Assembly (NCBI GenBank): GCA_949840345.1
Contig: CATKWX010000003.1
Location: forward strand, 23,370 to 87,369
Length of the DNA: 64,000 nucleotides
From: an uncultured Eubacteriales bacterium
GTDB lineage: Bacteria; Bacillota; Clostridia; TANB77; CAG-508
Reading direction: 5' to 3'
Shown: one piece after another, positions 1-57,562 of the stretch
Position numbering within the stretch: position 1 is the stretch's first letter
How the letters are laid out: the number at the start of each line of letters is the position of its first letter
Position numbers and translations under genes: made by a program
Notes under the pieces: generated by a model
The model's input: the letters and a program-made list of their open reading frames with translations, nothing else
Databases searched by the model: none
What the model was told of the DNA's origin: nothing

Positions 1-3000
1 AATGGAAACCATATTCAATTATCTAATGTAGTACAAGTTGCAGCAGGAGAATTTCATGCAGTAGCTTTAACAGCAAATGGTAAAGTTTATATGTGGGGTT
101 ACAATTATTATGGTCAAGCAGGAAGTGTTACAAAAAGAACAGAATTGTATCCACAATTAATAAGCATGCCAAATAATGTTACTATAAAAGAAATTGGAGC
201 TGGAAAAGACTATACAGTAATGGTAACTACTGCTGGAAAAGTATTAGGTATAGGTGATAGTGCATATGGACAATTAGGTTATAAGAATAGTTTACAATTT
301 ACTTCTATTAGAGAAATAGAAGAAAACAAATCAGAAAAAGAATTACCTATAATAGAAAAAATATCTGCTGGTATGAGACATGTAGTTGCATTAGATAGTA
401 ATGGACAAGTTTGGTTATGGGGGCTTGATGCAGGAAATGCTTTTGATTTCACACCAATTTATCAAACAACATTAAATGGTTTAGAAGTTGGCGAAAAAAT
501 CCAAGAAATAGAAGCTGGACATGGTGGAAGAACAATGGCCCTAAGTTCAAATGGCAAAGTTTATACATGGGAATTAGGCGATATAGGACCTATCGAACCA
601 ATGAATTTAGATAATGTACAAGTAAGAACGGATAAAGAAAAAGATAATATAGCAATAGTAGGAACAGCTTATTATGTAGTAAGCACAGATAATAAAGTAT
701 ATGGTTGGGGATATAATCAGTTTGGACAACTAGGAATAGGAAATACAAATTCACCAATAAACGTACCAACAGAATTAGTAATAGATGATGCTGTTAAAAA
801 TAAAGAGATAGATAAAGTATCAAGTTATTCAGCTGGTTATTACTATTATGGTCCTGCAGAATATGCAATAAATTCAGATGGATATGTATTAGGTTGGGGA
901 GAAGCAGGAACAGATATAATAGATCCAAATTATACAGATGGAAGCAATAACTTTAAATTATTAGGAGATGGAACAAGATATACTGCAAATTATATAGGAA
1001 GCATAAGTGTAAAGAATATTGTAGGAGATGATATAGTATTAGATATAACAGCACAAGGATTACAAGCAGGAAAAGATAGCAAAAACGTTTTAGATGTATT
1101 AGATAATGGTGGATATGTAACAGGAGGAAGAGTAAACTTATATAATTCTTCAATAAGTGAAAATTCAAAAGATAGTTTAACAATAAAATCAGTAGATGAA
1201 ACAATAGCAAGCTATGACGAAAAAACTGGAATATTAGTAGGAAAACAACAAGGAAGAACACTAGTAGAAGTTGTAACTTCAAAAAATACTATATACTTAA
1301 ATGTAGAAGTTATAGGAGATAATGTTGCATTTGCAAAAGTGGAAACTAAAGATAACTTTACAGTTGCCTTAAAAGCAGACGGAACAGTTTGGGCTTGGGG
1401 ATATAATAGCAATTTAGGAATTATAGATTCAGAACACAGCAATTACACAGGAATAATAGTACCAACTCAAGTAAAAGGATTAGAAAATGTAAAAGACATA
1501 GCTGTAGGAACAAACTTTGTATTAGTATTAAAAACAGATGGAACAGTTTGGGCTTGGGGTGCAAATAATTATGGACAATTAGGAAATGGAACAATTGACA
1601 CATCATCATATGCATCAATATTAACAACAGAACCAAAATTAACACAAGTAAAGCGTTATCAATTAGATAAAGTAACAACAGATGAAAAGATAACAATGCC
1701 AACGCCAACAGTAAAAGATGATTCAGGCGAAAATGTAATATATGCATATACTGAAAATGGTGTTGAAAAAGAATGTTATTTAAATGATGCAAAAGATACA
1801 TATACAGATATAAACGGAAATATTGTAATAAAAAAAGATACAGACGGAATTTTATACAAATGGGAAAATGGAGCATTCAAAACACAACCTGTAACAAGAG
1901 ACGTTTTAGGAAATTATAAATTAGAAAATATTACATCAATATCAGCAGGAGAAAATTACTCACTAGCATTAGACAGCAATGGAAAAGTTTGGAGTTGGGG
2001 ATATAATGGACATAGAGAATTAGGATTAGGAAATACAACTTCAAACGAGACACGTGCAAAAGAAGTTAACTTAAGCAATTTAAGTAATGAAGAATCAATA
2101 AAACAAATTGAGGCTGGAAAATATACATCATATATACTAACAAATGTAGGAAATGTATATGCATTTGGATACAATGGAAATCATCAATGCGCGACAGCTG
2201 GAAACTTCTATATTCCTACAAAAGCTAGCGCATTAAATAAGATTATAAAAATATCAACTTCTGTGGCAGGTAACGGTAGTGCATTTGCATTAACTGTAAA
2301 TGGACAAGTATATGCATTTGGATATGGATATAATTATCCAACAATGTTAGGATTAGACAAAGTTGTAGATATTTCAGGTGCATCTGGAAACAATGGAGCA
2401 ATTGCAAAATTCTCAGATGGAACAATAGGATACTGGACCTCTGGAAATGTAAATAATTCTACAATTACAAAATTAAAAGCAGAAGATGGAACAGACTTTA
2501 ATAACGTAATGCTAATAGATGCAGGTTCAAACTACTATACTGTTGTAAAATCAGATGGAACAGTTTGGACAGTGGGATCAAATTCAAGTTATGGACAATT
2601 AGGTAATAGAACTACATTATCAACTGCTATACCAACACTAAAATGTATAAGCTATCCATATTTAACATTAGATAAGAATGAAGTTACATTAAGTATAGGA
2701 CAAACAAGCAATATCAATGCTAAATATAGCTATGGATTTAACTTATTAAATACAGAAAAAGATATTGATGTAACATATACATCAAAAGATGAAAATATTG
2801 CAACAGTATCAGGAAATACAATTTTAGCAAAACAAGCTGGAACAACATATGTAACAGTAGAAAATCAAGATACAGGAGCAAAATTAAGAGTAAAAGTAAA
2901 TGTATTAGCAAACGATGAAGTAACAATGCCAAATATATCTGTTGGCTATACTCATACAGTTGCAGTTAAAACAGATGGAACAGTTTGGGGATGGGGTCAA

Positions 3001-6000
3001 AACTCATACGGAGAATTAGGACAAACTTCAAATAACCCAGTAAAAACACCAGAAAAATTAGCTATTGATGTAAAAGTAAAAGACGTTGCAGCAGGACTTA
3101 ATGAAACATTAATGGTAACAGAAGACGGAAAAGTATTGGCTATGGGATATAATAACTATGGATTAGGAGATAATGCTAATACAACATCTAATAAACCAGT
3201 AATTGTAAAAACACAAGTAGTAGATGAAAATGGAAATGTTTCATATGTAGATTTAGAAAACATAGTAAAAGTAACAACATTTGATAATATTAATTTAGCA
3301 TTAGATAATACAGGAAAACTATATGCATGGGGATATAATGGAAGCGGATATGCAAAAGTTGTAAATACATTTGGATTAGAAGTAAGAGACATATCTGAAA
3401 GATTAATATTAACAGAAGACGGAAAAGTATGGGAATACGACAATTCAAATAGAATTACATTTAAAGATGGATTAGAAAATATAGTACAAGTATCAAGTTC
3501 AGCATATTCAAAAAATGCAACATATGGATATTATATTGCACTAGATGCTGAAGGAAATGTATATACTTGGACAAAAAACAACAATAGTACAAATTTAGTA
3601 TCTGGAACAGAAACAACAATACCTACAAAAGTAACATTTGCAGAAGGAGTAAACATTGTTGATATAGAAGCCGGAGTAAGAGTAGCTTATGCAAAAGACG
3701 AACTAGGAAACGTATATACTTGGGGTAGAAGTGCAATTGCTGGAACATTAGGATTAGGATCAAGTATAGGTTCAGTTACAGCACCAACAAAGATAGAAAC
3801 ATTAGCAAATATAGAAGTAATGGCAGCATCAAAATATAGTAGTAGCTATAATCGTACATTTGTATCAACAAACATTGGTACAGTTTATGGATTCGGAAGA
3901 AACTCAAATTATAGTTTACTTGGAAATATTGACACAACTTCTTACTATTATGAACCAGTACAAGTAGGACAAAGTTACTTAGGATTCATAGATGAAAATG
4001 GAAATGAAATAACAAGAGTATCAATTGAAAAAGGAAAAACTGCTACTGTAGAGACAAGTATGATTGACTCATTTAATATAAGAAATAGAAAATCAAGTTC
4101 AACTGATAGTAATTGCACATGGCGTGTAATCAATTCAGATTTATTAAGCATACTTGGAGGAGATAGAAAAGAAAATACAATAACAGCTAATAACATATTA
4201 GGTGAAGCAGTAGTAATTGCAGAAGAAATTGATGAAGAAGGAAATAAAACAGGAGTATATGCAAAACTATATGTAGATGTTGTAGAAACAGCTACACTAG
4301 TTACTCCAAAAATGGAATCTGTAGGAAATCATACGATAGCTTTAAAGGCAGACGGAACAGTATGGGCTTGGGGAAACAATGTAAATTACGGAAATTCAGG
4401 AACAATAGTAGAGCCAACTCAAGTAAGAATTGCAAAACAAGTTGAAGTAGTAGAACCACAAGCAAAGACAAATACAGACGGAACACCAAAAGTTGATGAT
4501 AATGGAACACAAATATATGCATATATGAACAATGGTGTAGAAGTAGAGTGTTATAAAGTTGGAAACAATTATACAGATTTATCAGGCAAATTTGTAATTA
4601 GACAAGATAGTAAAGATAATAAATTATATGCATGGGATGCAGAACAGAATAAATTTGCTTTAGAAGATTTAGTAGATAAAAATGGAGAAAAAATTGTTGT
4701 AGTAGATATTGCTACATCTAATAATCATACATTATTATTAACAAATACAGGAGATGTATATAGCTTTGGATATAACTACTATGGACAATTAGGATATTCA
4801 ACATCAAGTAACTATTCATACTTACCAATAAAAGTAACTGATTTAAGAGATATAGTAAAAATTGCAGTTGGAGATAATTACAGCTTAGCAATGGATAAAT
4901 ATGGAACATTATGGGCATTTGGATATCAAAGATATTATAAAAATAGAGTATATCATACATCAATAAATACAACAGTACCTAAACAAATAACAAAATTAGA
5001 AAATGTAGATTTAAGTGAAAACTTAAAAAATGCTATAGATATAACAAATGAATATATAGTAACAAAAGATGGAAAAGTATTTACAATAGGACTATATAAC
5101 AAAACATTAACAGCAGGACAACAAGTACCAGGAATTACTGGAAGTGTAATAAAAGCAACAAGAACAAGTAGTTCTGGAAATGGACATACAGCATTTTTAA
5201 CAGAAGATGGAGAAGTATTTACAATAGGAAGAGGAACATCAGGACAATTAGGAAATGATATATATTCTAATTCAAATAATACAGCAGTACAAGTATTATA
5301 TGGAGAGGAAAATTCTAAATTAACTAATATAAGAGACATAAATGTTGGAGAAAACCACACAATGGCTATTGGAAAAGATGGAACATTATATACTTGGGGA
5401 TATAATGGAAGTGGTGAGCTAAGAAATAGCACAGTAGAAGCAGGAGTAAATACAGCACGTGCATTCGAAGTTAAATCAGACGAAAAGATAAAAGATATAA
5501 TATTAGTTTCTGGTGGAGATGGGTTTACAGTAGTAGCTGATTCAACAGGATATGCGTTTGCTTGGGGAAGAGGAGAAATAGGGCAATTAGGAAATAGACT
5601 AGCAATAACAAGCTATAATGCAGTAAGAGTTGGAACAGAAGGAGCAACATTAAGTACAAATCATATAACTCTACAGGAAAATGGAGATAGTGTAAAAGTT
5701 ACAGGAGTAAGCAAATTATTAAATGTATTATACGAACAAGGAATAGATGTAGAAAGTGCAACATCAAATGACATTAGTATAACAACAACAGTTGTAAATA
5801 AAGATACAGACGAAATAACAATAAGACCAGTAAAGGCAGGAACAGCAAGCGTTACTGTAAGAACAAAATCTGCAATGGGTAAAGATTTTGAAAATATTAT
5901 ACAAGTAACAGTATTACCAGAAGTAGCAGAAATTGCAGATGATATTAAATTACCTTCAGATAGAATAATTATGCCTATGACAGTAAGTGGAAAAGCTCAT

Positions 6001-9000
6001 ACATTAATACTAAAATCAGATGGAACAGTTTGGGCATATGGAGATAATAGATATGGACAAACAGGTGCAAAAGTTAACTACTCAGACAAAGCAACCAAAG
6101 TAGAATTCCCAGTTGGAACTGCATCAATAATAGCAATAGCAGCAGGAGACGAGTTTAGCGTTGCATTAGATGCCGGAGGTAATGTATGGACATGGGGATA
6201 CAATGCAAATGGAAGATTAGGAACAGGAACTGCAGATTCAAGTGTACACGCAGAACCAACAAAAGTATTATCAAATATAGTAAAAATAGATGCAGGATTA
6301 AGTGAAGTTATCGCATTAGACAAAAACGGATATGCATATACTTGGGGTAAAAATAATGGCGGTTCTTTAGGAATAATTGGAACAAATGCAGATCAATATT
6401 CACCAGTAAGAATAAATAATATAGCAGGAATAATAGATGTAGCAGCTGGAGAATATCATGCAATGATATTAACATCAGATGGAACAGTATACACAACAGG
6501 TAGAAATACATCAGGGCAATTAGGAAGAGATGTACAAAAGAGCGAATACTTTGAAAAGGTAGAGTTAGGAGCAAAAATAGCATACATAGAAGCAGGAAAC
6601 AGATCAAGTGCAGCAATAGACGTATCTGGAAGATTATGGGTATGGGGAGAAAACTCAAATGGACAATTAGGTTTAGGAATAAATGATAATAGAGTAAATG
6701 AACCTAGACTTGTAACAACAATTAAAGAAATAGTACAAAATGCTTCAATTGGAGAAAATCATATACATGTAGTAACAAATACTGGAAGACTATATGTAGC
6801 TGGTTCTAATAATCGTGGGCAATTGGGAATTGGAAAATCAATAGATAAAATAAATACATTTAGACAAGTAACAAGCTTAGGAACTAGTGTTATGAATTCA
6901 AATGCTGGAACAACATATAGCACAGTTATAAAGAAAGACGGAACTGTTTTCGGATTTGGAGATTATGATATTACAAGAACAAACTTTACAGATAGCTATG
7001 AGCCAGTTATGATAACAAACACAACATTATATCTAGATGAACAAGAAGTAGTAGTTAACATAGATGGAACACATACAATAAATGCAAATGGACAATACAA
7101 ACTAAATGTATTACGCAAAGATAATTCTGACTTGACATATTCAACAGCAAATAAAGACATTGCAACAGTAGATAATTCTGGTGTAATAACAGGAGTTTCT
7201 GTAGGTACTACTATAATTAATGTAGAAGATAAAAACGAAGGAAAAACAAAATCAGTAATAGTAAAAGTAATACCAAAAGATGCTGTACAAGCACCAGCAA
7301 TTGAAGGTGGAGATAAATTCACAATAGTAACAAATGCAAGTGGAGAAAGTTATTCATTTGGTACAAATGATAATATTGCAAAAACAAATATACCATCACT
7401 ATTAAATAACAGCTTGTCATTTAATAGGATTAAAGCAGGAAGAGACTTTGTAGTTGGTATAAATAAAGATAAAACAGTTTGGGTATTAGGAGATAATACA
7501 AATCATCAATTAGGATTAGAAGGAATAGATGCAACAGATAAAATGACTGTATTAAATACAAATAACATTAACAACCTTGTTCAAATAGATGCAGGAGAAA
7601 CTCAAGTAATAGCATTAGATGAATTTGGAATAGTATATGTATGGGGAGATACAGTTGAAATTCCAACAGCTATAAGACCAGTAAATAATAGAGTAATATC
7701 AGTATCTGCTGGTGGAAACTACAGTGCAATAGCAGATATAGAAGGAAACGCATATATTCTTTCAAATGGAATAGCAACAAAAATTAACGGAATAGAGAAT
7801 GCTATAAAAGTTGCAACAGGCTCAGAATATACGATGGTTCTAACAAGTGAAGGTACAGTATATAAAGTACTTAATTTAGCACCAACTGTATATAGTGAGT
7901 TAACAGGTTTAGGTAAAGTAGTAGATATAAGTGTAAATAGCGATTCATTTATGTGCTTAAATAGCGACAAAGAATTATATACATTTGGAAACAATGCAAA
8001 TGGACAATTAGGATTAGAGAGTGCAAATAATAAAGTTAATAATCCAAGAAAAGCAGCTGAAGATGTATTTACAATGGGAGCAGGATATAACAATACATAC
8101 TATATTAATACAAATGGTGATGTACTTTCAGCAGGATTAAACACATCAGGAGAATTAGGAAATGGAACAAGCGCAAAAATAGATGCTATAACATATAAAT
8201 CAAGTAACAAATATGTAAAAGTTGGAGACCAAGAATTTGAGTTAGATCCAAAAGCAGTAAGAGTAGCACCAGATTGGAAAGTGTTAGTAGGAGAAAAGGA
8301 TTTAAAAGATAGAGCAGAAAAAGAAGAAAAAACAAAAGCTTCAACTATAAAAGAAAAATCTAATTTCAATGTATTTGGAAATGGAACATTTGATTTAGAT
8401 AAATATGAATTTGAAATAAGCAATACACAAATAGCAGAAATAACAGATGAAAAAGTGTTAGAAATAACAGCGAAGAATTTAGGAAAAACAGTATTAAAAA
8501 TAACAAACAAAGTAACAAAAGAAGAAAAAGAATTAACAATAAAAGTAGTTACAGAAGATTTATTAAGAATAGAAAATATGTTTATAAACGATACATTACA
8601 AGACTTTATTGCAGAGCCAGATGAAAATGTAGATAATAAATTTGTAGTAAATGTAGAAGGTTCAAACCCAACAGGTACATTAAACATAGAATTAGAATTT
8701 AATGATACAGTACAAGTAGAAGATGAAGATGGAAATATATTAACTGCAACATTTAATTCAGACAAAAATATTTGGCAAGTAGAAGGATTAGATTTAACAA
8801 AATCTGTACAAGAGTTAAAGATAACATTAACTGCAGATGATGGAAGCAAATATGAATTTATTCTACTAATATACAATGAACTTATTGTAAAAGTAAATGA
8901 TGTAATGCTATCTGCAAAAGATGTATTAAATAAAGAAACATTAAAAACAGAAAAAGTATTTACAAAATATGTAGATCCAAAATCTAATACAGCTAAAGTA

Positions 9001-15000: not shown

Positions 15001-18000
15001 ACAGATGATGGAATTATTGTAGATTTAGCAGAAAAAGTTGAAGGAAATGGACGCATAAGAAATATTGTAATTACAGTAACTGCAGAATCTGAAGGTACAG
15101 CTACATACACTATAAAAGTAATAAGAATGGCAACAAATGCAAGCCTTGAGAAAGTTTTAGTAAATGGAAACGAAATAGAAATGACAGAAGAAAACTTACC
15201 AGAAGGAATTTCAGGAATATTTAATGCAAATGTAAAAGACAGCGATAAACAAGCTATAATAGAAGCAATGTCTGCAAATCCATACGCAACAGTATCTATA
15301 GCAGATACAGATTACACAACAATGAACACTGAACCATCATATGATGAAAAAGGTAAATATGACTTAAGCAAAGCTAGTGGAAGAACAGTAACAATAACAA
15401 TTGTTGTAACACCACAAGATAGCACAAAACCTACAAAGACATATCAATTAGTATTAACAAGAATATATGATAGCACAGTATTAGAAAGTGTTAGTGTAAA
15501 ACCAGCAGTAGACGGAGTAAAAAATAGTGACCCAATAGTTAAGAAGGATAATAATACACATACATTAGATTTTGCTAAAACAGCAAGCAAAGCTAACGAT
15601 AAGAATGTTTACTTTAAATCAGGAAGAATTACTGTTGATACAGATTGGACATCAGTAGCAATAGGAGATTTATTACCACAAGATTTAGCAGATACTGATT
15701 ATATACAACAATATACAATAACAAGAATAAATGGAGAAGATCCATACACAGCAAGCAAAGTTACAGATTACACAATAGATTCAGAATTCGAAATGCCAGA
15801 AGGAACACCTGTATACTTTAAAATAGTAACAAAAGCAGAATCTGGAAGCGAAGGAATCTATGTTGTAGAAGTATATAAAAATGCAACAAATACTACTCTA
15901 ACAAATATAAGAGTAGATGGAAAACTAGCAGTATTAGATGAAGACAGTGGAATTTACAAAGTAAATGTGTCTGTATTAAAAGACAAATTACCTATTGTAA
16001 TAACTGGACAAAACAACCTAAGCAAAGATAAAACAAAATTAAGTAGTATTACTGCAAATGGAGTAGATATAACAAATTTACTTGGACAAAGCAATACTGG
16101 AAGCGGTAAAACAGTACAAATTACATTACGAGATATAGTAAATGAACTAAACAAAAATAAAACAACATGTAGCGATTTAGATGGACTAGATAATAAAGTA
16201 ATTACTGTAGTAATATCAGTAGTTCCAGAGGACACAAGCATAGATGCAAGAGAATATACTGTAGAAATAACAAGACAACATAGTGATGAAACAATTAAAA
16301 ACATAGTATTAAACCAAGGTCAAACAATAGAAATTGAAGGAGTAGAGACATCTGTTGAAAAGATAGTACCTGCAGGATTTAGGTATAAATACTATGGAAC
16401 AGAGTCTAATAGATATAGACTTTATGAACAAGAAATAAAAGTAACATCTAAGTTAGATACAGTAACAATAAATGCAATCAATTTAACTTGTGAATATGCA
16501 ACTGGAACAATGATAGTAGATGGAAAAACATATGAATTACCATTAAAAGAGCCAGTTCCAGTATCATTACCAACAGAAGGATCATCAAAGAGAATTGAAA
16601 TCCACACAGTAGCAGAAGATGGTACTATAAACGAAGACACAGATCCAAAATATATAATCTTAACAAGAATGTATTCAGATGATTCTATTAGAAATATAAT
16701 GGTACAAAGAGAATATATAGCAGTGGATAGCGATGGAGAACCTTTAGAAGATAATCCAAGATATGAAACATATGTAAATGATACAAAAGTAGAAAATGAA
16801 GAAACATATAATATTCGCCAAAATGCAGAAACAACAAAATTAACATTGTATGCAAATAATTCATTAGCTAGAATAAATATGCAACTTGTAGATGTGCTAG
16901 ACAGAGATGGAAATAGCATAAAAACAGATAGTGATATATTAACGTTAAGCTATGTTCAAGGAAGAAATATATATGATCGCTTATACAACATAATGAATAC
17001 AAGAATAGCTAAATTTAATACATCAAATCCACTTGCTAGAACATTTGTAATAAAAGTATCAGTAAAATCTGAAGACCCACAAGTTCCAGCTGAAGTTTAT
17101 ACAATAAATGTGGTAAAACAAGATAATTCAGCTGAAATAAGCAAGGTTGTTGAAGTAAATGATACAGAAATAGACATACCAGTAGATACTGAAAATACTC
17201 ATTACGAATATATCGGAAGCGAACTAGATGATGGCAATATTTATACAAAATATATAACATCTGATATAGAAGAAGTAGTAACAAAAGTATATGCTGAAAG
17301 CAAATTTGCAAAAGTAGAGTTATTCAATACTGATCCAAGAGAAGATACAAGTGCAGAAGCATTTGCAACTGGAACTGGAACAGTAATAGGAAATATAGCA
17401 ACTACTGAAGGTTGGACAAGAGTATTTGTAAAAATCACAGCAGAAGATAGATTAACAAATAACATATACGAAGTATGGTTCATTAAGAAATCTGAAACTG
17501 ATGATGTATCAATAAAAGAATTATATGTTGACGGAGAGGCAATTCCAGCAAGAGAAGATGGAAACTATGAAATAGAAATTCCAGATACATTAACAGAAAT
17601 TACTGTAAAAATGATACCAAATTATGAATTTGCAAATGTATCTATAAATGGACAACCATTTACATGGCAAGAAGCAGAAGAAATAATTAATGAATATACT
17701 CTAAAAGGTGAAAACGTAGAAATTAAGTTACAAGTAAATATTCCAGAGCAACAAAGTACATCTGGTAAAGCCATAAATAATACAAAATTCTTGTACATTC
17801 ATAGAGTATCTACAAGTAACGAAATTGAAGAAATAACAACAGATAATAATAGAGATAGCATTACACCAGGAGGCTCACCACAATTTAATGATGCAACAGG
17901 AATTAATGACACATACGTAGTTAACCTTTATGGAGATAGAGAATTCGTAGACTTAAGAATAGTACCAGTAAGTCTTGGAGCAACTCTAACCTTATACGAT

Positions 18001-21000
18001 CTAGATGGAAATGAATTAACTTCAAGTAAAGGAACATTATTCTATGAAAATATAGAAGTTAATTCAGAAGATACAATAACATTTAAAGTAAAAGTAGCTC
18101 CAGAACAAGGCGAAGCTAAAGAGTATTATATAAATATAGTTCCAAAAGCAAGTCAAGCAGAATTAATGCAAATAATTGTTGATAGTAATATTATAGATGT
18201 TACTCCAGGGGTATATGAATATCCAGTATACGATTTAACATTACCAGAAATTGGAGCTATAGAAGCAATAGCGGAAGATTCACAAGCTTTAGTAAACATT
18301 TATACGAAAGAACATCCAGCAGGAATAGGAGATACTTTAGGAAGTGCTATAGTAAGTGATGTAAACTTCGAGCAAGCAATTATTGTACAAATAACAGTAA
18401 TGTCACCTAATAGAAAGAATCAAAATACTTACAAACTATACTTTAAAGATGTATCTGATGATACTACATTAAAAGAAGTAAGCTATAATACTACAGGAAA
18501 CGAGGCAGATAAAGTTATAGTAGAAATGACTGAATCAAGCGATCCAAGCTTTGCAGGCGAATACATAATAAAATTAGAACCAGAGGCACAAACCATCAAT
18601 ATAGGAATGATTGCAAATGCAGAATTAACAACTATAGCTGTAGAAGAATTAGAAAAGGAACATTCACTTGAATTATCTAAAGATGTAAGTTCAATGACAG
18701 AAGATATCGTAATATATGTACTTACTACAGCAGAGAGTGATAGTCAATCAGTGTATAAAGTAATAATTAAAAAACCTATATCAATTACAGGAAAAGTAGT
18801 AACAGAAAGCGATTCAGGTAACTATTCAAATGTACCAGTTCAAATACTAGATAGTGCAAATGTAGAAATTGCAACAACTTTAACTAATTCAGATGGGACA
18901 TTTGAAGTTAGTGTACCAGAAGGTGAAGGATACAGTGTAGTAATTAAAAAACCAGGATACTTAAGATATACAATAACTGATATCCCAGTAGTTTATGGAG
19001 TAAGAACATATGTAGGAATCGCAAACTTAATAGCTGGAGAAGTAGCAGGAAATGATGAACATATTGAATTAAGAGACATGGTACAACTTAACAAAAAAGT
19101 AAGAAATGCAGGTTCAGTAGAAGCAGATTCTCCAGATAAAATATACGATTTTGATGAAAATGGATATATTGAACAAAAAGATTTAGCTATTCTACTTAAA
19201 AATTATGACAAAACTGCTCAAAAAGATTCAACATTTACATATACAAGATATATAAATGTAAAAGGATTAGTAATAGACAAAACTGGAGCAATAGTTCAAG
19301 ACGCAACAATAGAATTAGGAAACAGAGCAACTACAAGTAAATCTGGAGAATTCGATGTAGAAGACATTAAAGTGGGAGACTATACTCTAACTGTAAAAGA
19401 TTCAAACGGAAATATAATAGGACAAAATGATATATCTATAGTTGAAGGTAACGAGTATACAATAAAAGATAATACTATTACAATAGCAGCAAACACATCA
19501 GTAGTAGATTTACAAGTAATAGTAAATGGGACAAAAGCAATAATATCAAAACGTGGAGAAGAATCAGATATTGATATGATAGAGCCAAAAGCAACTATGG
19601 AAGAAAATGCAGTAGAGTTTGTAGATGATGAAATAAAAGTAACTGTAACAGGTGAAGACCAAAACTTATCTAGCTTCGAATTATACACAACAGACGAAAA
19701 TGGTGAAAATGCTACACTGATAGCAAGCAAGACTGTATCAGGAGTAAAATCATATACAACTACATTAGAAGGTAAAGTAGAAACAGAATTTAACAAACTT
19801 CACTATATAAAAGTAGTTGTAAGAGATAAGTCAGGAAATGCAACAGAACTATCATCAAAAGTAACTGATAATACAATTAGAACAGAAGAAGATTTAGTAA
19901 CATTTAGTAATATAGTAAATGGTCAAAATGGTGAAACTAGAAAGAAATATACAAAAGAGACAGTAACATTAGGAAGAGATTTAGATTTATCAACAACTAG
20001 ATTTAATCCAATTGGAATGAGTGGACTAAAGGTATTTGAGGGAACATTCGATGGTAAAGGACATACAATTTCTAATATAAATATAGATAGTACTAATAAT
20101 TATGTTGGATTATTTGGATATGTAAAAAATGCAACAATTAAGAATGTAGGAATTGAAAGTGGAAGCATAAATAGCAGTAAAAATAGTGTTGGTGGAATTG
20201 TAGGTTATGCTATAGGAACTATAACAATAGAAAATTGTTACAATAAGGCAAACATAAGTGGAACATCTAAAGTAGGAGGAATCATAGGTTCTTCAGATGA
20301 TACAATAACAATTGAAAACTGCTACAATGCAGGAAATGTTACAGGAACATCTAAAGTGGGAGGAATTGTAGGCGAATTAAATAAAGGAAAAATAAACAAA
20401 TGCTACAATATAGGAACAATAGAAGGAACATCAATTGCGGGAGAAATCGCTGGATTCCAAAAGGTAACATTAGAAAATGATAATGTAAAAACAGCTCAAA
20501 TAACAAACTCTTATTATTCAAATACAGTAGGAAAAGGAATTGGAGAAATAGGAACAGTTGAAGGTTCTGAGATAATAGATACAACTGAAGCTATAACAGA
20601 CGTGGATACATTATTAACAAACTTAGGAGATGCATTTAAAGCAGATTCAGATGGAATAAACAAGAATTACCCAATACTAGTTTGGGAAAAACAAGCAGAA
20701 CCAGAAGTAGCAGTAATGAAATTAAGCAAACCAGTAGCTTCTGAATATATCTTACCAGTTACAACAGATTATACAATCACATCAGAATTTGGTGTAAGAG
20801 TACATCCAGTAACAGGGGAAACCAGCAAAATGCATTATGGAATTGATATAGCAGCTGAGTGGAAATCAGAAGTTATAGCAATAGAGGAAGGTACAGTAAC
20901 ATTTGCAGGTGAAAACGGAGGATATGGATACTGTATAGAAATAGAACACGAAATAAATGGCGAAAAAGTATACAGTGTATATGCCCACCTATTTAGGATA

Positions 21001-21174
21001 GATGTAGAAGTTGGAGATACAGTAACTAAAGGACAAACAATAGGTAAGGTTGGAGGAATGCCGGGTACAGAAGGTGCCGGAACATCAACAGGACCACATC
21101 TACACTTAGAAACAAGAAAACAATCAGGATCATACGCATCAGCCGTAGACCCAAGAAACTATTTAGAATTCTAA
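1..21174 (+). CDS. Giant secreted/surface multidomain protein (>7050 aa, 5' end outside window). RCC1-like beta-propeller blades, Big_2 Ig-like domains, long array of cadherin-like beta-sandwich repeats, CarboxypepD_reg-like domain, one dockerin/EF-hand-like Ca-binding segment, GLUG-type beta-helix repeats, C-terminal M23 (LytM) peptidase.
   Basis: Frame 1 is open from nt 1 (no stop before 91) to TAA at 21172-21174. Many WGxNxxGQLG RCC1 motifs in the first ~8 kb. Cadherin-like ~90-aa repeats run from ~8.5 to 18.7 kb. The M23 motifs HYGIDIA...HLHLE are encoded at ~20.78-21.12 kb. Hairpin terminator directly downstream. Confidence 0.9.
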   Translation, partial: NGNHIQLSNVVQVAAGEFHAVALTANGKVYMWGYNYYGQAGSVTKRTELYPQLISMPNNVTIKEIGAGKDYTVMVTTAGKVLGIGDSAYGQLGYKNSLQFTSIREIEENKSEKELPIIEKISAGMRHVVALDSNGQVWLWGLDAGNAFDFTPIYQTTLNGLEVGEKIQEIEAGHGGRTMALSSNGKVYTWELGDIGPIEPMNLDNVQVRTDKEKDNIAIVGTAYYVVSTDNKVYGWGYNQFGQLGIGNTNSPINVPTELVIDDAVKNKEIDKVSSYSAGYYYYGPAEYAINSDGYVLGWGEAGTDIIDPNYTDGSNNFKLLGDGTRYTANYIGSISVKNIVGDDIVLDITAQGLQAGKDSKNVLDVLDNGGYVTGGRVNLYNSSISENSKDSLTIKSVDETIASYDEKTGILVGKQQGRTLVEVVTSKNTIYLNVEVIGDNVAFAKVETKDNFTVALKADGTVWAWGYNSNLGIIDSEHSNYTGIIVPTQVKGLENVKDIAVGTNFVLVLKTDGTVWAWGANNYGQLGNGTIDTSSYASILTTEPKLTQVKRYQLDKVTTDEKITMPTPTVKDDSGENVIYAYTENGVEKECYLNDAKDTYTDINGNIVIKKDTDGILYKWENGAFKTQPVTRDVLGNYKLENITSISAGENYSLALDSNGKVWSWGYNGHRELGLGNTTSNETRAKEVNLSNLSNEESIKQIEAGKYTSYILTNVGNVYAFGYNGNHQCATAGNFYIPTKASALNKIIKISTSVAGNGSAFALTVNGQVYAFGYGYNYPTMLGLDKVVDISGASGNNGAIAKFSDGTIGYWTSGNVNNSTITKLKAEDGTDFNNVMLIDAGSNYYTVVKSDGTVWTVGSNSSYGQLGNRTTLSTAIPTLKCISYPYLTLDKNEVTLSIGQTSNINAKYSYGFNLLNTEKDIDVTYTSKDENIATVSGNTILAKQAGTTYVTVENQDTGAKLRVKVNVLANDEVTMPNISVGYTHTVAVKTDGTVWGWGQNSYGELGQTSNNPVKTPEKLAIDVKVKDVAAGLNETLMVTEDGKVLAMGYNNYGLGDNANTTSNKPVIVKTQVVDENGNVSYVDLENIVKVTTFDNINLALDNTGKLYAWGYNGSGYAKVVNTFGLEVRDISERLILTEDGKVWEYDNSNRITFKDGLENIVQVSSSAYSKNATYGYYIALDAEGNVYTWTKNNNSTNLVSGTETTIPTKVTFAEGVNIVDIEAGVRVAYAKDELGNVYTWGRSAIAGTLGLGSSIGSVTAPTKIETLANIEVMAASKYSSSYNRTFVSTNIGTVYGFGRNSNYSLLGNIDTTSYYYEPVQVGQSYLGFIDENGNEITRVSIEKGKTATVETSMIDSFNIRNRKSSSTDSNCTWRVINSDLLSILGGDRKENTITANNILGEAVVIAEEIDEEGNKTGVYAKLYVDVVETATLVTPKMESVGNHTIALKADGTVWAWGNNVNYGNSGTIVEPTQVRIAKQVEVVEPQAKTNTDGTPKVDDNGTQIYAYMNNGVEVECYKVGNNYTDLSGKFVIRQDSKDNKLYAWDAEQNKFALEDLVDKNGEKIVVVDIATSNNHTLLLTNTGDVYSFGYNYYGQLGYSTSSNYSYLPIKVTDLRDIVKIAVGDNYSLAMDKYGTLWAFGYQRYYKNRVYHTSINTTVPKQITKLENVDLSENLKNAIDITNEYIVTKDGKVFTIGLYNKTLTAGQQVPGITGSVIKATRTSSSGNGHTAFLTEDGEVFTIGRGTSGQLGNDIYSNSNNTAVQVLYGEENSKLTNIRDINVGENHTMAIGKDGTLYTWGYNGSGELRNSTVEAGVNTARAFEVKSDEKIKDIILVSGGDGFTVVADSTGYAFAWGRGEIGQLGNRLAITSYNAVRVGTEGATLSTNHITLQENGDSVKVTGVSKLLNVLYEQGIDVESATSNDISITTTVVNKDTDEITIRPVKAGTASVTVRTKSAMGKDFENIIQVTVLPEVAEIADDIKLPSDRIIMPMTVSGKAHTLILKSDGTVWAYGDNRYGQTGAKVNYSDKATKVEFPVGTASIIAIAAGDEFSVALDAGGNVWTWGYNANGRLGTGTADSSVHAEPTKVLSNIVKIDAGLSEVIALDKNGYAYTWGKNNGGSLGIIGTNADQYSPVRINNIAGIIDVAAGEYHAMILTSDGTVYTTGRNTSGQLGRDVQKSEYFEKVELGAKIAYIEAGNRSSAAIDVSGRLWVWGENSNGQLGLGINDNRVNEPRLVTTIKEIVQNASIGENHIHVVTNTGRLYVAGSNNRGQLGIGKSIDKINTFRQVTSLGTSVMNSNAGTTYSTVIKKDGTVFGFGDYDITRTNFTDSYEPVMITNTTLYLDEQEVVVNIDGTHTINANGQYKLNVLRKDNSDLTYSTANKDIATVDNSGVITGVSVGTTIINVEDKNEGKTKSVIVKVIPKDAVQAPAIEGGDKFTIVTNASGESYSFGTNDNIAKTNIPSLLNNSLSFNRIKAGRDFVVGINKDKTVWVLGDNTNHQLGLEGIDATDKMTVLNTNNINNLVQIDAGETQVIALDEFGIVYVWGDTVEIPTAIRPVNNRVISVSAGGNYSAIADIEGNAYILSNGIATKINGIENAIKVATGSEYTMVLTSEGTVYKVLNLAPTVYSELTGLGKVVDISVNSDSFMCLNSDKELYTFGNNANGQLGLESANNKVNNPRKAAEDVFTMGAGYNNTYYINTNGDVLSAGLNTSGELGNGTSAKIDAITYKSSNKYVKVGDQEFELDPKAVRVAPDWKVLVGEKDLKDRAEKEEKTKASTIKEKSNFNVFGNGTFDLDKYEFEISNTQIAEITDEKVLEITAKNLGKTVLKITNKVTKEEKELTIKVVTEDLLRIENMFINDTLQDFIAEPDENVDNKFVVNVEGSNPTGTLNIELEFNDTVQVEDEDGNILTATFNSDKNIWQVEGLDLTKSVQELKITLTADDGSKYEFILLIYNELIVKVNDVMLSAKDVLNKETLKTEKVFTKYVDPKSNTAKVEISIDNIENKIQLETTDGTVIKTTNPGEVFEMADLSLPNVDNRFIVKILNANGKAEKQYVLRISKSSIEAIKIKDMSEIKTTDRVLGEDGSVYLQEFNAQILDKNKLANITIELENKDIAKIEIDGVDKTSDISNSKLVISKELEEDESKTTDVVVKVTTNEGYTEDYIIKVSTISSNNNIDVIKLIDIGGISRDPIVESREVPGNILEIVLHDKTAELDKTIGIIPLTESKKATISFNGGLTFMKQGRDVGLEPKKVTDNKYEVPVIVKAENGDTKAYTLYIYKESENTEIEVLKVTGTPSNYESTATRTKGTNNYIGKVVKTDTGYTLSIDLVDEYSIIESITVNDEELTGLTGSQGKYTIDIDSDKVGETIKIKVKAEYGNTDTYALVLKEMDDNAEFDSVKIDATIYNELETVTEINAKVKSTEDGKLTVKAESEYATVRVYEADPRIDNTVKPIAEGTEEVELTIPFNGARTKTLYLEVTSEDGQNKTIKVLNATKTTDNTNVTSVTVDGDLATLDAKDASKTTYTIDVSESTTNATIVVTAEDANSTVQIDSASGKGKVEITTDISNANEVKFTVTSEEGTKKNYTLKLNKLSADTSFTKELQNSEGGVVASNSEFVQDATDKLKYKVEVLDNLGDIKLVIKPNDSKTTVVIKDKDGNVIPNGVIPSDISQDITVEMTSEDGNTTTYTIQVVSKHHMIQSASVTGNTTNAKTISLTAEDIAKLYKVVRVHPDSTQASIYVEVNSSYSLTGVNANVAYIDKDGNPLHDDLKDEDITASVTGTVSSNRSSTFNVNLLSEKATVQVTLTISTGETQVLTLDIVKGSTEAKLNYVELVGSTLGEKKKATYGDADTTKEIVMTSKDSKFTMEAVAKNNGTVKIYKLEDPEQDFQTVDLATLTEITNKSEVTLSTEDSLYVIEVTSEFDNNKARYLVNTRKQHSDASLVNLTLTVGNAEKGDTVKHLGDFGKFTYDKATDTYKLTAGVPEKMDSLTISELVADSKAKIEWTDIGGTEYAEYKDKDIKELSQADLIGNIEKHIKIKVTAENGTVKNYDITLKTINPNMTVGDITLYNVTDQKNVDIENKNDKNKTAKILQSVNDVTVKGIATNGAVSLKVLSINGHKINEEVATDPEFVMNENALDISVVGPYTYIDEEGNTQTISGDEIQTIVVERQVKSEGKHLYPAYYEDEEIKTDTLTITKLMTDANIKVTYLDDGTPNTITSTNFGGVKVDKDTGDKVREATVYLASAQTSVVINNITADNKHVKVSHRGNGDTYTLYKAAAPYTRDFSVDDKATITEEIEVTTDVEENDITYRIKFVKKSANNNINTVTVNTDQAQKVADRDEFTHAILSSTNKLEVGITDIEKNATVKMYISAINNIGVTTSDKAVTYSDVREKEELKDATKDLYAQLLNALTQTNIERKDLNKITVKIEVQAEDSDVTLRTYTLNIEVQNSNLVSINGIDLNGNIKKTSQLLGGDFSVGSNPYKTPIIKVASSVSTVELTDITCTGDETAILTDGLGNVLKNKSLTVNVSDTGVTEAKIIVTLNGVKQEFVVRIQKKSTDVAIKEISADLDKTSATSQTTGSYELNVRSTVDPEVKVTLNDTGAKVKKAVSNVAGVNVSTIKNNTFTVSGIAEGTHKDPSAIAKQIGITITVEAEDGNTQDYVIMLNRKHTETGLGVVAVEESFVGDNVPPINFTNVSTINRTISSSTNGITIKKAQAKCNLAKVYVLNDAGEKREIGEIGLHIDITAGTTKSIKLLVVAEYGNERTYTLNVRRQSANTNLSGVTVTSGGKAKQDTVKPYEIDINVSDNPAIVIAPSDSNAKVTGIKVYRQGESNTVNIANISSIVNGTTFSITDLSKLYTDDDTEDASDDLNRYITVEVEITAEDTNVKATHIITLNRRHIETGLQDISYEYEQTVEKEVAVEPTEGETTEGETTKVTVTETVEGTAKLSTTETKEIFVSSTTESIAFAKFVPACKEAEKVEITVDGEKVTQTDDGIIVDLAEKVEGNGRIRNIVITVTAESEGTATYTIKVIRMATNASLEKVLVNGNEIEMTEENLPEGISGIFNANVKDSDKQAIIEAMSANPYATVSIADTDYTTMNTEPSYDEKGKYDLSKASGRTVTITIVVTPQDSTKPTKTYQLVLTRIYDSTVLESVSVKPAVDGVKNSDPIVKKDNNTHTLDFAKTASKANDKNVYFKSGRITVDTDWTSVAIGDLLPQDLADTDYIQQYTITRINGEDPYTASKVTDYTIDSEFEMPEGTPVYFKIVTKAESGSEGIYVVEVYKNATNTTLTNIRVDGKLAVLDEDSGIYKVNVSVLKDKLPIVITGQNNLSKDKTKLSSITANGVDITNLLGQSNTGSGKTVQITLRDIVNELNKNKTTCSDLDGLDNKVITVVISVVPEDTSIDAREYTVEITRQHSDETIKNIVLNQGQTIEIEGVETSVEKIVPAGFRYKYYGTESNRYRLYEQEIKVTSKLDTVTINAINLTCEYATGTMIVDGKTYELPLKEPVPVSLPTEGSSKRIEIHTVAEDGTINEDTDPKYIILTRMYSDDSIRNIMVQREYIAVDSDGEPLEDNPRYETYVNDTKVENEETYNIRQNAETTKLTLYANNSLARINMQLVDVLDRDGNSIKTDSDILTLSYVQGRNIYDRLYNIMNTRIAKFNTSNPLARTFVIKVSVKSEDPQVPAEVYTINVVKQDNSAEISKVVEVNDTEIDIPVDTENTHYEYIGSELDDGNIYTKYITSDIEEVVTKVYAESKFAKVELFNTDPREDTSAEAFATGTGTVIGNIATTEGWTRVFVKITAEDRLTNNIYEVWFIKKSETDDVSIKELYVDGEAIPAREDGNYEIEIPDTLTEITVKMIPNYEFANVSINGQPFTWQEAEEIINEYTLKGENVEIKLQVNIPEQQSTSGKAINNTKFLYIHRVSTSNEIEEITTDNNRDSITPGGSPQFNDATGINDTYVVNLYGDREFVDLRIVPVSLGATLTLYDLDGNELTSSKGTLFYENIEVNSEDTITFKVKVAPEQGEAKEYYINIVPKASQAELMQIIVDSNIIDVTPGVYEYPVYDLTLPEIGAIEAIAEDSQALVNIYTKEHPAGIGDTLGSAIVSDVNFEQAIIVQITVMSPNRKNQNTYKLYFKDVSDDTTLKEVSYNTTGNEADKVIVEMTESSDPSFAGEYIIKLEPEAQTINIGMIANAELTTIAVEELEKEHSLELSKDVSSMTEDIVIYVLTTAESDSQSVYKVIIKKPISITGKVVTESDSGNYSNVPVQILDSANVEIATTLTNSDGTFEVSVPEGEGYSVVIKKPGYLRYTITDIPVVYGVRTYVGIANLIAGEVAGNDEHIELRDMVQLNKKVRNAGSVEADSPDKIYDFDENGYIEQKDLAILLKNYDKTAQKDSTFTYTRYINVKGLVIDKTGAIVQDATIELGNRATTSKSGEFDVEDIKVGDYTLTVKDSNGNIIGQNDISIVEGNEYTIKDNTITIAANTSVVDLQVIVNGTKAIISKRGEESDIDMIEPKATMEENAVEFVDDEIKVTVTGEDQNLSSFELYTTDENGENATLIASKTVSGVKSYTTTLEGKVETEFNKLHYIKVVVRDKSGNATELSSKVTDNTIRTEEDLVTFSNIVNGQNGETRKKYTKETVTLGRDLDLSTTRFNPIGMSGLKVFEGTFDGKGHTISNINIDSTNNYVGLFGYVKNATIKNVGIESGSINSSKNSVGGIVGYAIGTITIENCYNKANISGTSKVGGIIGSSDDTITIENCYNAGNVTGTSKVGGIVGELNKGKINKCYNIGTIEGTSIAGEIAGFQKVTLENDNVKTAQITNSYYSNTVGKGIGEIGTVEGSEIIDTTEAITDVDTLLTNLGDAFKADSDGINKNYPILVWEKQAEPEVAVMKLSKPVASEYILPVTTDYTITSEFGVRVHPVTGETSKMHYGIDIAAEWKSEVIAIEEGTVTFAGENGGYGYCIEIEHEINGEKVYSVYAHLFRIDVEVGDTVTKGQTIGKVGGMPGTEGAGTSTGPHLHLETRKQSGSYASAVDPRNYLEF

Positions 21175-21183
21175 AATAATTTA

Positions 21184-21226
21184 TAAGAAAATAGAATGTG
21201 TAAAAGCACATTCTATTTTTTGTGGT
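21184..21226 (+). terminator. Rho-independent terminator of the giant gene
   Basis: 10-bp stem atagaatgtg/cacattctat, loop taaaagc, followed by TTTTTTG. Confidence 0.7.
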
Positions 21227-21251: not shown

Positions 21252-21360
21252 ATATATTGCGGGCGGATTTTGGGGCTCGCTTGCAAATGAATAGTGAAGA
21301 ATACAAAATTCTTCGAATTTTGATGTAGGGGCGGGACTCGTGTCCGCCCGCAAATAAATA
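21252..21360. repeat. GC-rich REP/BIME-like element cluster R1 (GTAGGGG head plus palindrome gggcgggac-tcgt-gtccgccc; module aatgaatagtgaagaatacaaaattcttcgaattttga)
   Basis: GC-rich imperfect palindromes in AT-rich DNA. Shares modules with 15 other clusters in this window. Confidence 0.75.
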
Positions 21361-21638
21361 TTACAAAAAATCAAAAATATATTTACAAATAAAACATATT
21401 AGTATATATCAAACTCGCTTCGCGAGAGTGAAGAAATAAGAGTGAATAATTAAGAATGATGGAGAATGTGTAAGAGTATAAATCAATAGCGAGTTTGTAC
21501 TCTTAACTTTTAAATATTCACTATTAATTTTTCACTAAATCTATTTACATTTAAAATATATTAATATATAGTATATAATATAAACAAAACCAAAGGAGAA
21601 AACTCAATTATGGCAAACGCTAAAACCCTTGATACTGT

Positions 21639-21652
21639 ACACACACACACAC
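21639..21652. repeat. (AC)7 dinucleotide microsatellite
   Basis: acacacacacacac lies inside a 17-codon ORF MANAKTLDTVHTHTHIM (21610-21663) that has an upstream GGAG. Confidence 0.8.
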
Positions 21653-21765
21653 ACATTATGTAGCCTAGTAAACCCAAAAAAATTATATAAAACATAGATA
21701 AACACGTAAAACCTATGTGTATTTTTAATACACATAAGATTTACGTGTTTTTTTGCTGTGCCGAA

Positions 21766-21890
21766 AACATATTACACATTGTAGGGCGGACGGCTCTGTC
21801 TGCCTGTTCTTCGGAGGCATACCCTAACAAAATATTAATGAATAATGAAGAATGAATAGTGAAAAATACAAAATTCTTCGAATTTTGAAG
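21766..21890. repeat. REP/BIME-like element cluster R2 (gtagggcggac-ggctct-gtctgcc hairpin plus aatgaatagtgaaaaatacaaaattcttcgaattttga module). Supplies the RBS of the next gene.
   Basis: Module identical to R1. Ends in gaaggaggaaaccca immediately before ATG 21902. Confidence 0.7.
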
Positions 21891-21901
21891 GAGGAAACCC
21901 A

Positions 21902-32766: not shown

Positions 32767-32842
32767 TGGTGGGCAATCGGGGGGTCGAACCCCGGACCTT
32801 CTGATTAAGAGTCAGCTGCTCTACCAACTGAGCTAATCACCC
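32767..32842 (-). tRNA. tRNA-Lys (anticodon CUU)
   Basis: The reverse complement folds as a cloverleaf: D-arm GCTC-AGTTGGTA-GAGC, anticodon loop CTCTTAA, T-arm CGGGG-TTCGACC-CCCCG, encoded CCA. Acceptor stem needs two G-U pairs and the anticodon stem has one mismatch. Confidence 0.7.
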
Positions 32843-55452: not shown

Positions 55453-55543
55453 AAAAACCTCCATTCGAGCAATTTATGCTCTGATAAATATTAGAATTTA
55501 ATATTTCATAAAAGTTAATTTATTAAAATGTATATACAAAAAT

Positions 55544-56014: not shown

Positions 56015-56131
56015 AACGTCCTCCTAAAAATAAATTTAAATATAGTTTGTATTAAATTTCATAATTTATACTTTTTATAGAAAAAATTTGCAAATAATGA
56101 TATAATTTTAAAAAAATAATTGGAGGATAAG

Positions 56132-57322: not shown

Positions 57323-57562
57323 TTATTAGCATTTATTATTACCATTTAATGCGAATTTCCGTAATATAACATATAAAATATACATTTAATATTACAAAAT
57401 TTTAATACAAAATTAATATAATAAAAACATTTTCAAAGTCTAAAAATCCCTAATAATTAGACGTATGATTACAAAATATGGCAAGATAGCCTACTTTAAA
57501 TAAAAAATAAAGCTTATATAATATAAATATAAAATATATAAACAAAAAAGGTGAGGAACAAA

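Follow-up and report, generated by a model that had tools for sequence, protein, structure and literature searches.

What a bacterium gains by ending a fibre of more than 7,000 residues in a peptidoglycan endopeptidase is the question raised by a 64,000-nucleotide stretch of DNA from an uncultured Eubacteriales bacterium (assembly GCA_949840345.1, contig CATKWX010000003.1, positions 23,370 to 87,369), referred to here as the window. Its first 21,174 bases belong to one gene for a giant surface protein built of RCC1-like propellers, a cadherin-like stalk and a C-terminal module that closes in an M23 peptidase domain. Among uncultured gut Clostridia, giant surface proteins have hardly been characterised, and descriptions to date present them as repetitive scaffolds for binding; RCC1-type giants of this group have been reported, and dockerins on Clostridia giants have been noted (bioRxiv 10.1101/2023.11.21.568195). 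Here, such a scaffold is coupled to a dockerin and to an endopeptidase that is predicted to be catalytically complete, and no description of an RCC1/cadherin-like/GLUG/M23 architecture in one giant protein was found in the literature. A first reading made from the sequence only (the sequence-only reading) had seen in this protein a lytic tip on a long stalk, not a simple adhesin. The analysis presented below supports the intact enzyme, places it tentatively at the base of the fibre, and leaves its target, own or foreign wall, as a matter that sequence alone does not decide.

The giant gene and its peptidase domain

Frame 1 of the window is open from its first base to a TAA stop at 21172-21174, which gives 7,057 codons without a stop in DNA of about 30% G+C. 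The encoded sequence is an exact C-terminal suffix of P0269, a 7,179-residue protein of a public collection that is called as a single gene on contig CAOYUV010000009.1 of the metagenome-assembled genome (MAG) GCA_948567395.1 (locus L014, 10001-31540). The gene, described earlier as a single uninterrupted open reading frame (ORF) of more than 7,000 codons running on upstream, is indeed that, and it therefore extends only 122 codons beyond the window; positions 1..21174 on the plus strand, on which all of its features lie, hold the last 7,057 of its 7,179 codons and the stop. The protein has a mass of about 790 kDa. Just 3′ of the stop codon, on the same strand, lies a terminator-like hairpin (21186..21221) with a 16-bp stem, a folding energy of -17.9 kcal/mol and a U-run in its 3′ arm.

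A frame of this length could be an artefact, either a decaying pseudogene or a chimera of collapsed repeats, the latter being a concern raised in the sequence-only reading. Every source is a short-read MAG assembly, and some relatives are broken, P0127 being the 3′ part of a split gene and P0001 a 5′-truncated remnant. However, the longest DNA self-match within the gene is 180 bp at 69% identity, and at least 11 contigs of 50-200 kb, assembled independently and drawn from several sources, carry P0269 with the same or almost the same sequence. The window itself matches other assemblies at 100% over 17 kb (L004) and at 99.96% over 20.9 kb (L003), and the 90%-identity cluster comprises five full-length variants of 7,173-7,184 residues from NCBI, ENA and Logan assemblies. 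Because long DNA self-matches are missing and the gene recurs on many independent contigs, a chimera formed by repeat collapse is unlikely; with the stop-free frame at this base composition and colinear full-length orthologues at 38-50% identity also speaking against it, an artefact of either kind is scarcely credible. The giant gene is real and conserved.

At its extreme C-terminus the protein carries a peptidase M23 domain (20827..21171). Pfam Peptidase_M23 (PF01551) matches it with 92.1 bits against a cut-off of 28.7 (E = 2.6e-26), and its HYGID, YAHL and HLH motifs align with the zinc and catalytic motifs of NMB0315 (3slu), 6muk and the phage protein gp16 (9m7n). The five residues concerned (H69, D73, H120, H157 and H159 in the numbering of the last 181 residues, with first bases at 20833, 20845, 20986, 21097 and 21103) are the only invariant His/Asp columns in a 50-sequence alignment and are also invariant in four orthologues. 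The AlphaFold2 model has a predicted local distance difference test score (pLDDT) of 85.6, exceeding 90 across the domain, and superposes on LytM and lysostaphin with target-normalised template modelling (TM) scores of 0.82-0.83 and root-mean-square deviations of 2.0-2.3 Å at 29-34% identity (Foldseek E = 2e-10). The complete M23/LytM domain proposed earlier is thus upheld by both the Pfam profile and the structure prediction of the C-terminal end, and the loss of zinc ligands considered at that time is not seen. By sequence, motifs and modelled fold, the giant protein is a member of peptidase family M23, and the domain looks catalytically competent on these predictions.

The kind of M23 enzyme can be narrowed to some extent. 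By sequence, the domain is closer to enzymes of the DD-endopeptidase type (NMB0315, Csd3, MepM, ShyA), and its nearest relatives outside the family are proteins of 250-310 residues whose source name is DD-metalloendopeptidase. NCBIfam returns matches only below threshold (MepM, ShyA, SpoIIQ, EnvC and similar), so no specific M23 subfamily can be assigned. Degenerate LytM domains are common, those of EnvC and NlpD lacking the catalytic and zinc residues, and EnvC, DipM and SpoIIQ are among the structural matches of the model. A pure adhesin, whose M23 domain would serve as a non-catalytic binding or regulatory module in the manner of EnvC, NlpD or SpoIIQ, is nonetheless very unlikely, as all five catalytic and zinc residues are retained in the orthologues and aligned homologues mentioned above. 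A phage origin of the domain, for example as a tail lysin, was also considered and rejected: a phage collection gives only generic M23 matches of at most 34% identity, and the neighbourhood is chromosomal.

Family and architecture of the fibre

Relatives were sought with an exhaustive HMMER search of 1.84 billion representatives, using the last 457 residues as the query. Besides its own cluster (7,184 residues, 99% identity), the search returned three other giants with the same C-terminus, namely P0151 (6,814 residues), P0152 (7,226 residues) and P0250 (7,212 residues), at 55-58% identity over the query, and P0127 (1,526 residues) at 71%. Leaving aside the fragments P0001 and P0002, the remaining matches among the best 150 are to multi-GLUG proteins, which align to the query at internal GLUG repeats and not along its entire length. 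The three giants stem from other gut metagenomes, one orthologue coming from Hadza human gut samples, and are colinear with P0269 over the full length; the comparison of domain order with homologues suggested in the sequence-only reading thus finds one order throughout. Their overall identity to P0269 is 50, 42 and 38%. The M23 domain is the most conserved region (74, 74 and 66%) and the stalk the least (26-49%), with the propellers at 30-64% and the signal segment at 47-68%. The same M23 domain is found in every full-length relative. The family as a whole is small and conserved, with at least five lineages.

Shorter proteins with this C-terminus turned out not to be free-standing forms of it. 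P0127 derives from the 3′ half of a giant gene that is split. P0001 (765 residues, 53% identical) is not a stand-alone C-terminal module either: its homology runs upstream of the called start to a stop codon and ends there abruptly, and the same junction occurs in two samples, as in a 5′-truncated remnant; P0002 is likewise a remnant or fragment. At the DNA level, a 5′-truncated remnant of a homologous giant gene is found in other metagenomes (L001 9906-12298 and L002), comprising the last 776 residues at 53% identity; it starts abruptly behind a stop codon and has an intact M23 domain and no signal peptide. P0034 is a small protein made of a dockerin and an M23 domain only, the latter being 54% identical.

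The full-length protein begins, outside the window, with MNNLESAEKKRKRLLEIIAIIIVLCIFLVLVFAANLGEGDG..., which is followed by an acidic linker and, from about residue 72, by the first propeller. Residues 14-33 form its sole hydrophobic segment. The hydrophobic core is closed by a V/L-F-A motif that is kept in four orthologues and in a second giant protein of the window, in contrast to the linker after it, which is only about 20% identical to that of P0269 among the three orthologues. This conserved motif resembles a signal-peptidase site, and the N-terminus looks cleavable.

Behind this signal-like N-terminus come six RCC1-like propellers, each with an Ig-like domain, then the stalk and the C-terminal module. 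Every family named in the sequence-only reading (RCC1, Big_2, cadherin-like, CarboxypepD_reg, GLUG and M23) was recovered with Pfam, with E values of 0 to 1e-164 for RCC1, RCC1_2 and WD40_RLD, 1.5e-5 for Big_2 and 4.6e-11 for Cadherin-like (PF12733). The interleaving of propellers with Big_2 domains that it described also holds, since profiles built from the protein itself place an Ig-like domain after each of the six propellers. RCC1 sequence is confined to full-length residues 72-2867, the first 40% of the protein.

The propellers were delimited by Pfam (RCC1, RCC1_2, WD40_RLD) and a blade map. Propeller 1 starts about 50 codons upstream of the window, which holds its C-terminal part (1..990), a hot spot of strain variation; the Big_2-type Ig-like domain after it lies at 1075..1317 (own-protein profile, E = 1e-34). 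Propeller 2 (1333..2670), with an insertion of about 75 residues, is followed by another Big_2-type domain at 2671..2910 (own-protein profile, E = 1.6e-37; Pfam HL_N-beta match at residues 922-957). Propeller 3 (2953..4134) would be followed by a short Ig-like segment, placed at ~4138-4320 by position only, and propeller 4 (4333..5715), which has an insertion of the propeller-2 type, by a putative Ig-like segment at ~5716-5985. Propeller 5 (5998..7020) contains the best WD40_RLD match (residues 2040-2343) and precedes a Big_2 domain at 7036..7275 (Pfam Big_2 at residues 2346-2419; own-protein profile, E = 2e-39), and propeller 6 occupies 7288..8235. The insertions in propellers 2 and 4 lie at window positions ~1700-1950 (residues ~570-650) and ~4750-4980 (residues ~1585-1660), respectively, and have a motif in common (IYAYTENGVEKECYLND and IYAYMNNGVEVECYKVG); two of the rare cysteines of the protein are found inside the insertion.

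The stalk (8254..18777) consists of cadherin-like beta-sandwich repeats. Where the earlier count had been about 35, the profile built from the protein itself gives 24 confident repeats (residues 2871-6259 of the window protein) with gaps that fit 5-6 more diverged ones, or about 30. The repeats are very diverged, with a mean column identity of 14% between them; PF12733 matches at E <= 0.01 in 10 of 30 stalk segments taken singly (best 3e-11), and the other 14 confident repeats are tied in solely via the own-protein profile.

The last ~800 residues make up a module of the order CarboxypepD_reg, dockerin-like segment, CarboxypepD_reg, beta-rich domain, GLUG helix, linker and M23. For the CarboxypepD_reg-like domain, the family assigned earlier stands (Pfam, E = 2.1e-14) while the number does not: there are two copies, at 18784..18972 and 19258..19464 (E = 2.9e-9 for the latter). 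Between them, at 19015..19224, the segment described before as a single dockerin or EF-hand-like one is dockerin-like, as proposed, and two-segmented instead of single. The window copy reaches 16 bits against Dockerin_1, below the cut-off of 22.9, and aligns to the dockerin of P0034; in the three orthologues, the corresponding segments reach 24.5, 31.7 and 37.7 bits and cover positions 4-55 of the 57 in the profile. Since these exceed the cut-off, the segment is best described as a type I dockerin of two segments whose copy in the window is degenerate. The beta-rich domain (19579..19875; 33-54% identity in the orthologues) matches no Pfam family and is probably Ig/Fn3-like, judged by its position.

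The GLUG repeats (19876..20700; Pfam Glug 34 bits against a cut-off of 20.5, E = 2.4e-8) are modelled by AlphaFold2 as a right-handed beta-helix with pLDDT mostly above 90, which among PDB entries resembles the IgA1 proteases 7uvk and 6xja most closely. As stated in the sequence-only reading, this module is shared with the second giant protein at 57.5 kb (38% identity, E = 4e-28). A linker of about 45 residues (20701..20826) joins the helix to the M23 domain and is probably flexible, with pLDDT of 37-60 in both models and 39-43% identity in the orthologues. The giant protein shows no match to SH3b, LysM or CW_binding, the beta-helix standing in their place. Neither an LPXTG motif (searched as LPx[TAS]G over the whole sequence) nor another C-terminal covalent anchor is present, and with the hydrophobic segment near the N-terminus being the only one, the protein is not a sortase-anchored adhesin of the MSCRAMM type.

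Variation between strains is unevenly spread. Variants that are 98.7% identical have 74 variable columns in full-length residues 1-600 (window ~1-1430) and 39 at about residues 4,800-5,100 (window ~14030-14930), including a 6-residue indel at 5054-5059, versus 0-7 per 300 residues across most of the remaining sequence. The clustering of substitutions in both segments suggests recombination or diversifying selection.

Several known protein classes share parts of this architecture. The RCC1 giants of West-Roberts et al. 2023 are likewise very large extracellular proteins of gut Clostridia built of RCC1 propellers; theirs, however, are described as a single RCC1 repeat throughout, with no anchors or enzymes, whereas here the RCC1 part is followed by a stalk and an M23 domain. 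A one-genome-per-species scan with the N-terminal 420 residues found only distant RCC1 relatives of 1,000-2,300 residues, which end in dockerins, DUF4214 or Fn3 and in no case in M23. Canonical dockerin ends occur on other RCC1 surface proteins of gut Clostridia (L007, L010). The M26 IgA1 proteases of Streptococcus and Gemella (6xja, 7uvk) have in common with the giant protein a GLUG beta-helix N-terminal to a zinc metallopeptidase, although their M26 domain (HExxH) cleaves host IgA1 and the domain found here has the M23 peptidoglycan endopeptidase fold. Finally, the non-cellulolytic dockerin proteins of the ruminococcal cellulosome (PMC2930009) combine a type I dockerin, sometimes internal, with peptidase, leucine-rich repeat (LRR) or other modules, while the size and the RCC1/cadherin-like content of the giant protein have no counterpart there.

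Orientation of the fibre and target of the enzyme

The arrangement favoured here, tentatively and at somewhat less than an even chance, is a fibre held at the surface of its producer by the C-terminal module, with the RCC1 end distal. The V/L-F-A site, the position of the dockerin, the variability of the N-terminal part and the lack of a C-terminal covalent anchor are the reasons to favour a cell-proximal C-terminus and an outermost RCC1 end. The dockerin adjoins the enzyme inside the conserved C-terminal module, the small protein P0034 pairs a dockerin with an M23 domain as well, and the concentration of variation in residues 1-600 is what would be expected of an exposed recognition tip, as the strain comparison suggests. 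Dockerin-borne wall-active peptidases, including one of the VanY type, have been described in Ruminococcus flavefaciens (PMC2930009).

Under this arrangement, the ~790-kDa fibre would be exported by the Sec pathway and its signal peptide cut after the conserved V/L-F-A. The C-terminal module would then keep it on the producer, by binding of the dockerin to a surface cohesin, by binding of the beta-helix and M23 domain to the wall, or by both, and the variable RCC1 end would reach up to ~200 nm outward as a binding head. On its ~45-residue linker, the M23 domain could cleave the peptide cross-links of peptidoglycan within reach. Its main substrate would be the sacculus of the producer, where it may help to seat or anchor the fibre or bring about local remodelling of the wall, and it might also cut the wall of a tightly held contacting cell. 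In sum, the protein would combine the functions of a giant adhesin and a murein endopeptidase, the enzyme lying at its base. A possible parallel is offered by the specialised wall-opening hydrolases of Gram-positive envelope machines (for example LytM-containing conjugation hydrolases of the PrgK/TcpG type, EssH and FlgJ), whose peptidoglycan hydrolase domain is devoted to bringing a single large structure into or across the wall; they are small stand-alone components of a secretion apparatus, unlike the hydrolase fused to the exported fibre here.

Several points weigh against this arrangement. The dockerin of the window copy scores below its threshold, no cohesin was found in the neighbouring genes, the ones checked for it, and a catalytic M23 domain is not known to act as a wall anchor. 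The N-terminal segment, conserved at 47-68%, could instead be an uncleaved membrane anchor, which would put the M23 domain at the distal tip. As the M23 domain is exported last, it would be unable to open the wall for its own chain. Moreover, the enzymatic domain of a protein is usually its best-conserved part regardless of what it acts on, which makes the conservation of M23 silent on self versus non-self.

With an uncleaved N-terminal anchor holding the M23 domain atop a stalk of ~200 nm, or with the dockerin displaying it, the protein would be a bacteriolytic weapon that cuts the peptidoglycan of Gram-positive neighbours on contact and kills or weakens competitors. The intact and strongly conserved M23 domain, borne on a flexible linker at the very C-terminus, the lack of a C-terminal wall anchor, the conserved N-terminal hydrophobic segment and a neighbouring beta-helix of the type that adjoins the protease domain in IgA1 proteases would all suit such a role. 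Among Firmicutes, secreted bacteriolysins of the M23 type are established weapons, lysostaphin, zoocin A and enterolysin A (listed in PMC12116727) being examples, and a part of giant proteins in the degradation of prey cell walls has been proposed for Omnitrophota (bioRxiv 10.1101/2023.11.21.568195). Against this stand the signal-peptidase-like motif, the dockerin position and the N-terminal variability, which point to the opposite orientation, an enzyme domain that is invariant among homologues and not polymorphic, and nearest M23 relatives that are ordinary housekeeping enzymes of the DD-endopeptidase type. In addition, a producer with the same cross-link type would be sensitive to its own enzyme. 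The adjacent immunity-like gene that the sequence-only reading had proposed to look for was not found: no immunity-like or FemABX-type gene lies within 10 kb upstream or 40 kb downstream, and none is conserved beside the giant gene in four loci, although protection of a Gram-positive cell from external murein hydrolases is possible without an adjacent immunity protein. All considered, a bacteriolytic weapon is possible, if doubtful. A narrower version of it, a free-standing device independent of any apparatus, in which the ~200-nm tether would recognise its target via the RCC1 head or via dockerin and beta-helix while M23 breaches the wall from outside, appears unlikely. Of the lytic tip on a stalk, therefore, the intact and conserved enzyme stands, and with it the view that this is more than a plain adhesin; a weapon at the distal tip is not supported.

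Secreted M23 bacteriolysins and autolysins of Firmicutes (lysostaphin, LytM, zoocin A, enterolysin A/EnpA) resemble the giant protein in their Sec signal, their C-terminal or stand-alone M23 domain and their HxxxD...H...HxH motifs. These proteins, however, measure 25-50 kDa and carry a small targeting domain, SH3b or another, and the genes of the bacteriolysins stand next to an immunity gene of the FemABX type; without a targeting SH3b domain and a FemABX-type neighbour, the ~790-kDa protein is not a classical bacteriolysin. Polymorphic toxins (WapA of B. subtilis, CdiA, Rhs, LXG) similarly place an effector at the extreme C-terminus of a long extracellular filament, but their C-terminal toxins are swappable and an immunity gene lies directly downstream. 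Here, the C-terminus is the most conserved part and such a gene is missing, so the protein is not a polymorphic toxin. Alternatively, the protein might scavenge murein, being released or displayed on a scaffold in the manner of a cellulosome, with its N-terminal part binding particles or debris and M23 degrading gut peptidoglycan as a nutrient. The dockerin within the family, the small dockerin-M23 relative P0034, the dockerin ends of other RCC1 surface proteins (L007, L010) and the dockerin-borne peptidases of R. flavefaciens are in keeping with this. Nevertheless, scavenging is quite improbable, given that no glycosidase, amidase or muropeptide-uptake genes lie beside the giant gene, that an endopeptidase alone frees little usable product and that 790 kDa is a costly carrier for one small enzyme.

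With other cells as its target, the enzyme would represent a new, machinery-free form of contact-dependent antagonism among Gram-positives that operates without a protein immunity factor; with the producer as its target, it would reveal how a fibre of nearly 800 kDa is seated in the thick wall of a Gram-positive cell. The last 180-460 residues form a small expressible module, which makes the question of self or foreign target directly testable, and this module together with two antibodies could tell a contact-dependent lysis device from a wall-seating mechanism of a giant adhesin.

Neighbouring genes and other features of the window

The giant gene lies in a cluster of large surface-protein genes. 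Upstream are genes for proteins of 2,719 and 1,909 residues with Big_3 and Flg_new domains; a cohesin suspected by eye in the 1,909-residue protein is not supported by Pfam or by a PDB sequence search. Outside the window, about 320 bp upstream of the giant-gene start, a divergent gene on the minus strand (L014 8402-9679) encodes a PG_binding_1-LysM-Peptidase_M14 protein of the gamma-D-Glu-diamino-acid endopeptidase I type. Its position is syntenic across three orthologous loci, and in two of these (L015, L016) it is truncated at the same point; given this truncation and the lack of a signal peptide, it is probably a mere neighbour and not an immunity gene. Small ORFs downstream of the orthologues in L015 and L016 were likewise dismissed as immunity genes, being mutually unrelated and, in one case, resembling IS3 OrfA. 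Downstream of the giant gene follow the terminator, a 763-residue DUF285/LRR protein and housekeeping genes.

The second giant ORF (57562..63999, plus strand) is separate from the first gene and runs off the window after more than 2,146 residues. It contains many GLUG repeats, regions like Peptidase_M26_N (which this family profile also matches), CarboxypepD_reg and SpaA/Cna_B stalk domains, and its signal-like N-terminus (EKRKRLKLIAIIALIIVLNALLIWVFASN) is similar to that of the first giant protein. In GCA_948498925.1 it amounts to ~5,900 residues, split into products of 281 and 5,637 residues. Look-ups of the glycosyltransferase (56120-57259) and the YpeB-like protein (54061-55464) returned no record. 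The window also carries SpoIIR, SleB and YpeB, in keeping with a host among the spore-forming uncultured gut Clostridia of ~30% G+C, and the MurA of this organism shares 82% identity with proteins that bear the label 'Clostridia bacterium'.

The intergenic region behind the giant gene shows further features. A tiny ORF (MANAKTLDTVHTHTHIM, 21610-21663) with its own Shine-Dalgarno-like sequence precedes the DUF285/LRR gene, and behind it, at 21700-21750, lies a hairpin with 24-nt arms (-26.5 kcal/mol) and a T-run; the two could be a leader peptide with an attenuator, or merely a terminator. The same region holds a 44-nt direct repeat at 93% identity, with copies 565 bp apart (21286-21329 and 21851-21894), the second of which overlaps the ribosome-binding site of the DUF285 gene. 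GC-rich palindromes, for example GGGGCGGGACTCGTGTCCGCCC near 21330, stand beside both copies, and the repeat suggests a duplicated or inserted intergenic segment.

Synteny with GCA_948567395.1 (L003) ends at window base 32828, inside a tRNA-Lys(CTT) gene (32767-32842, minus strand), and past this breakpoint L003 has a phage-type integrase gene in place of the ABC transporter genes. This suggests a hot spot of tRNA-linked integration that varies from strain to strain. Just before it, two overlapping ORFs on the plus strand encode AAA_14 (30750-31223) and DUF4143 (31183-31956), which usually form one ATPase protein; the same split is called in L003 and L014, and the pair may be a frameshifted gene.

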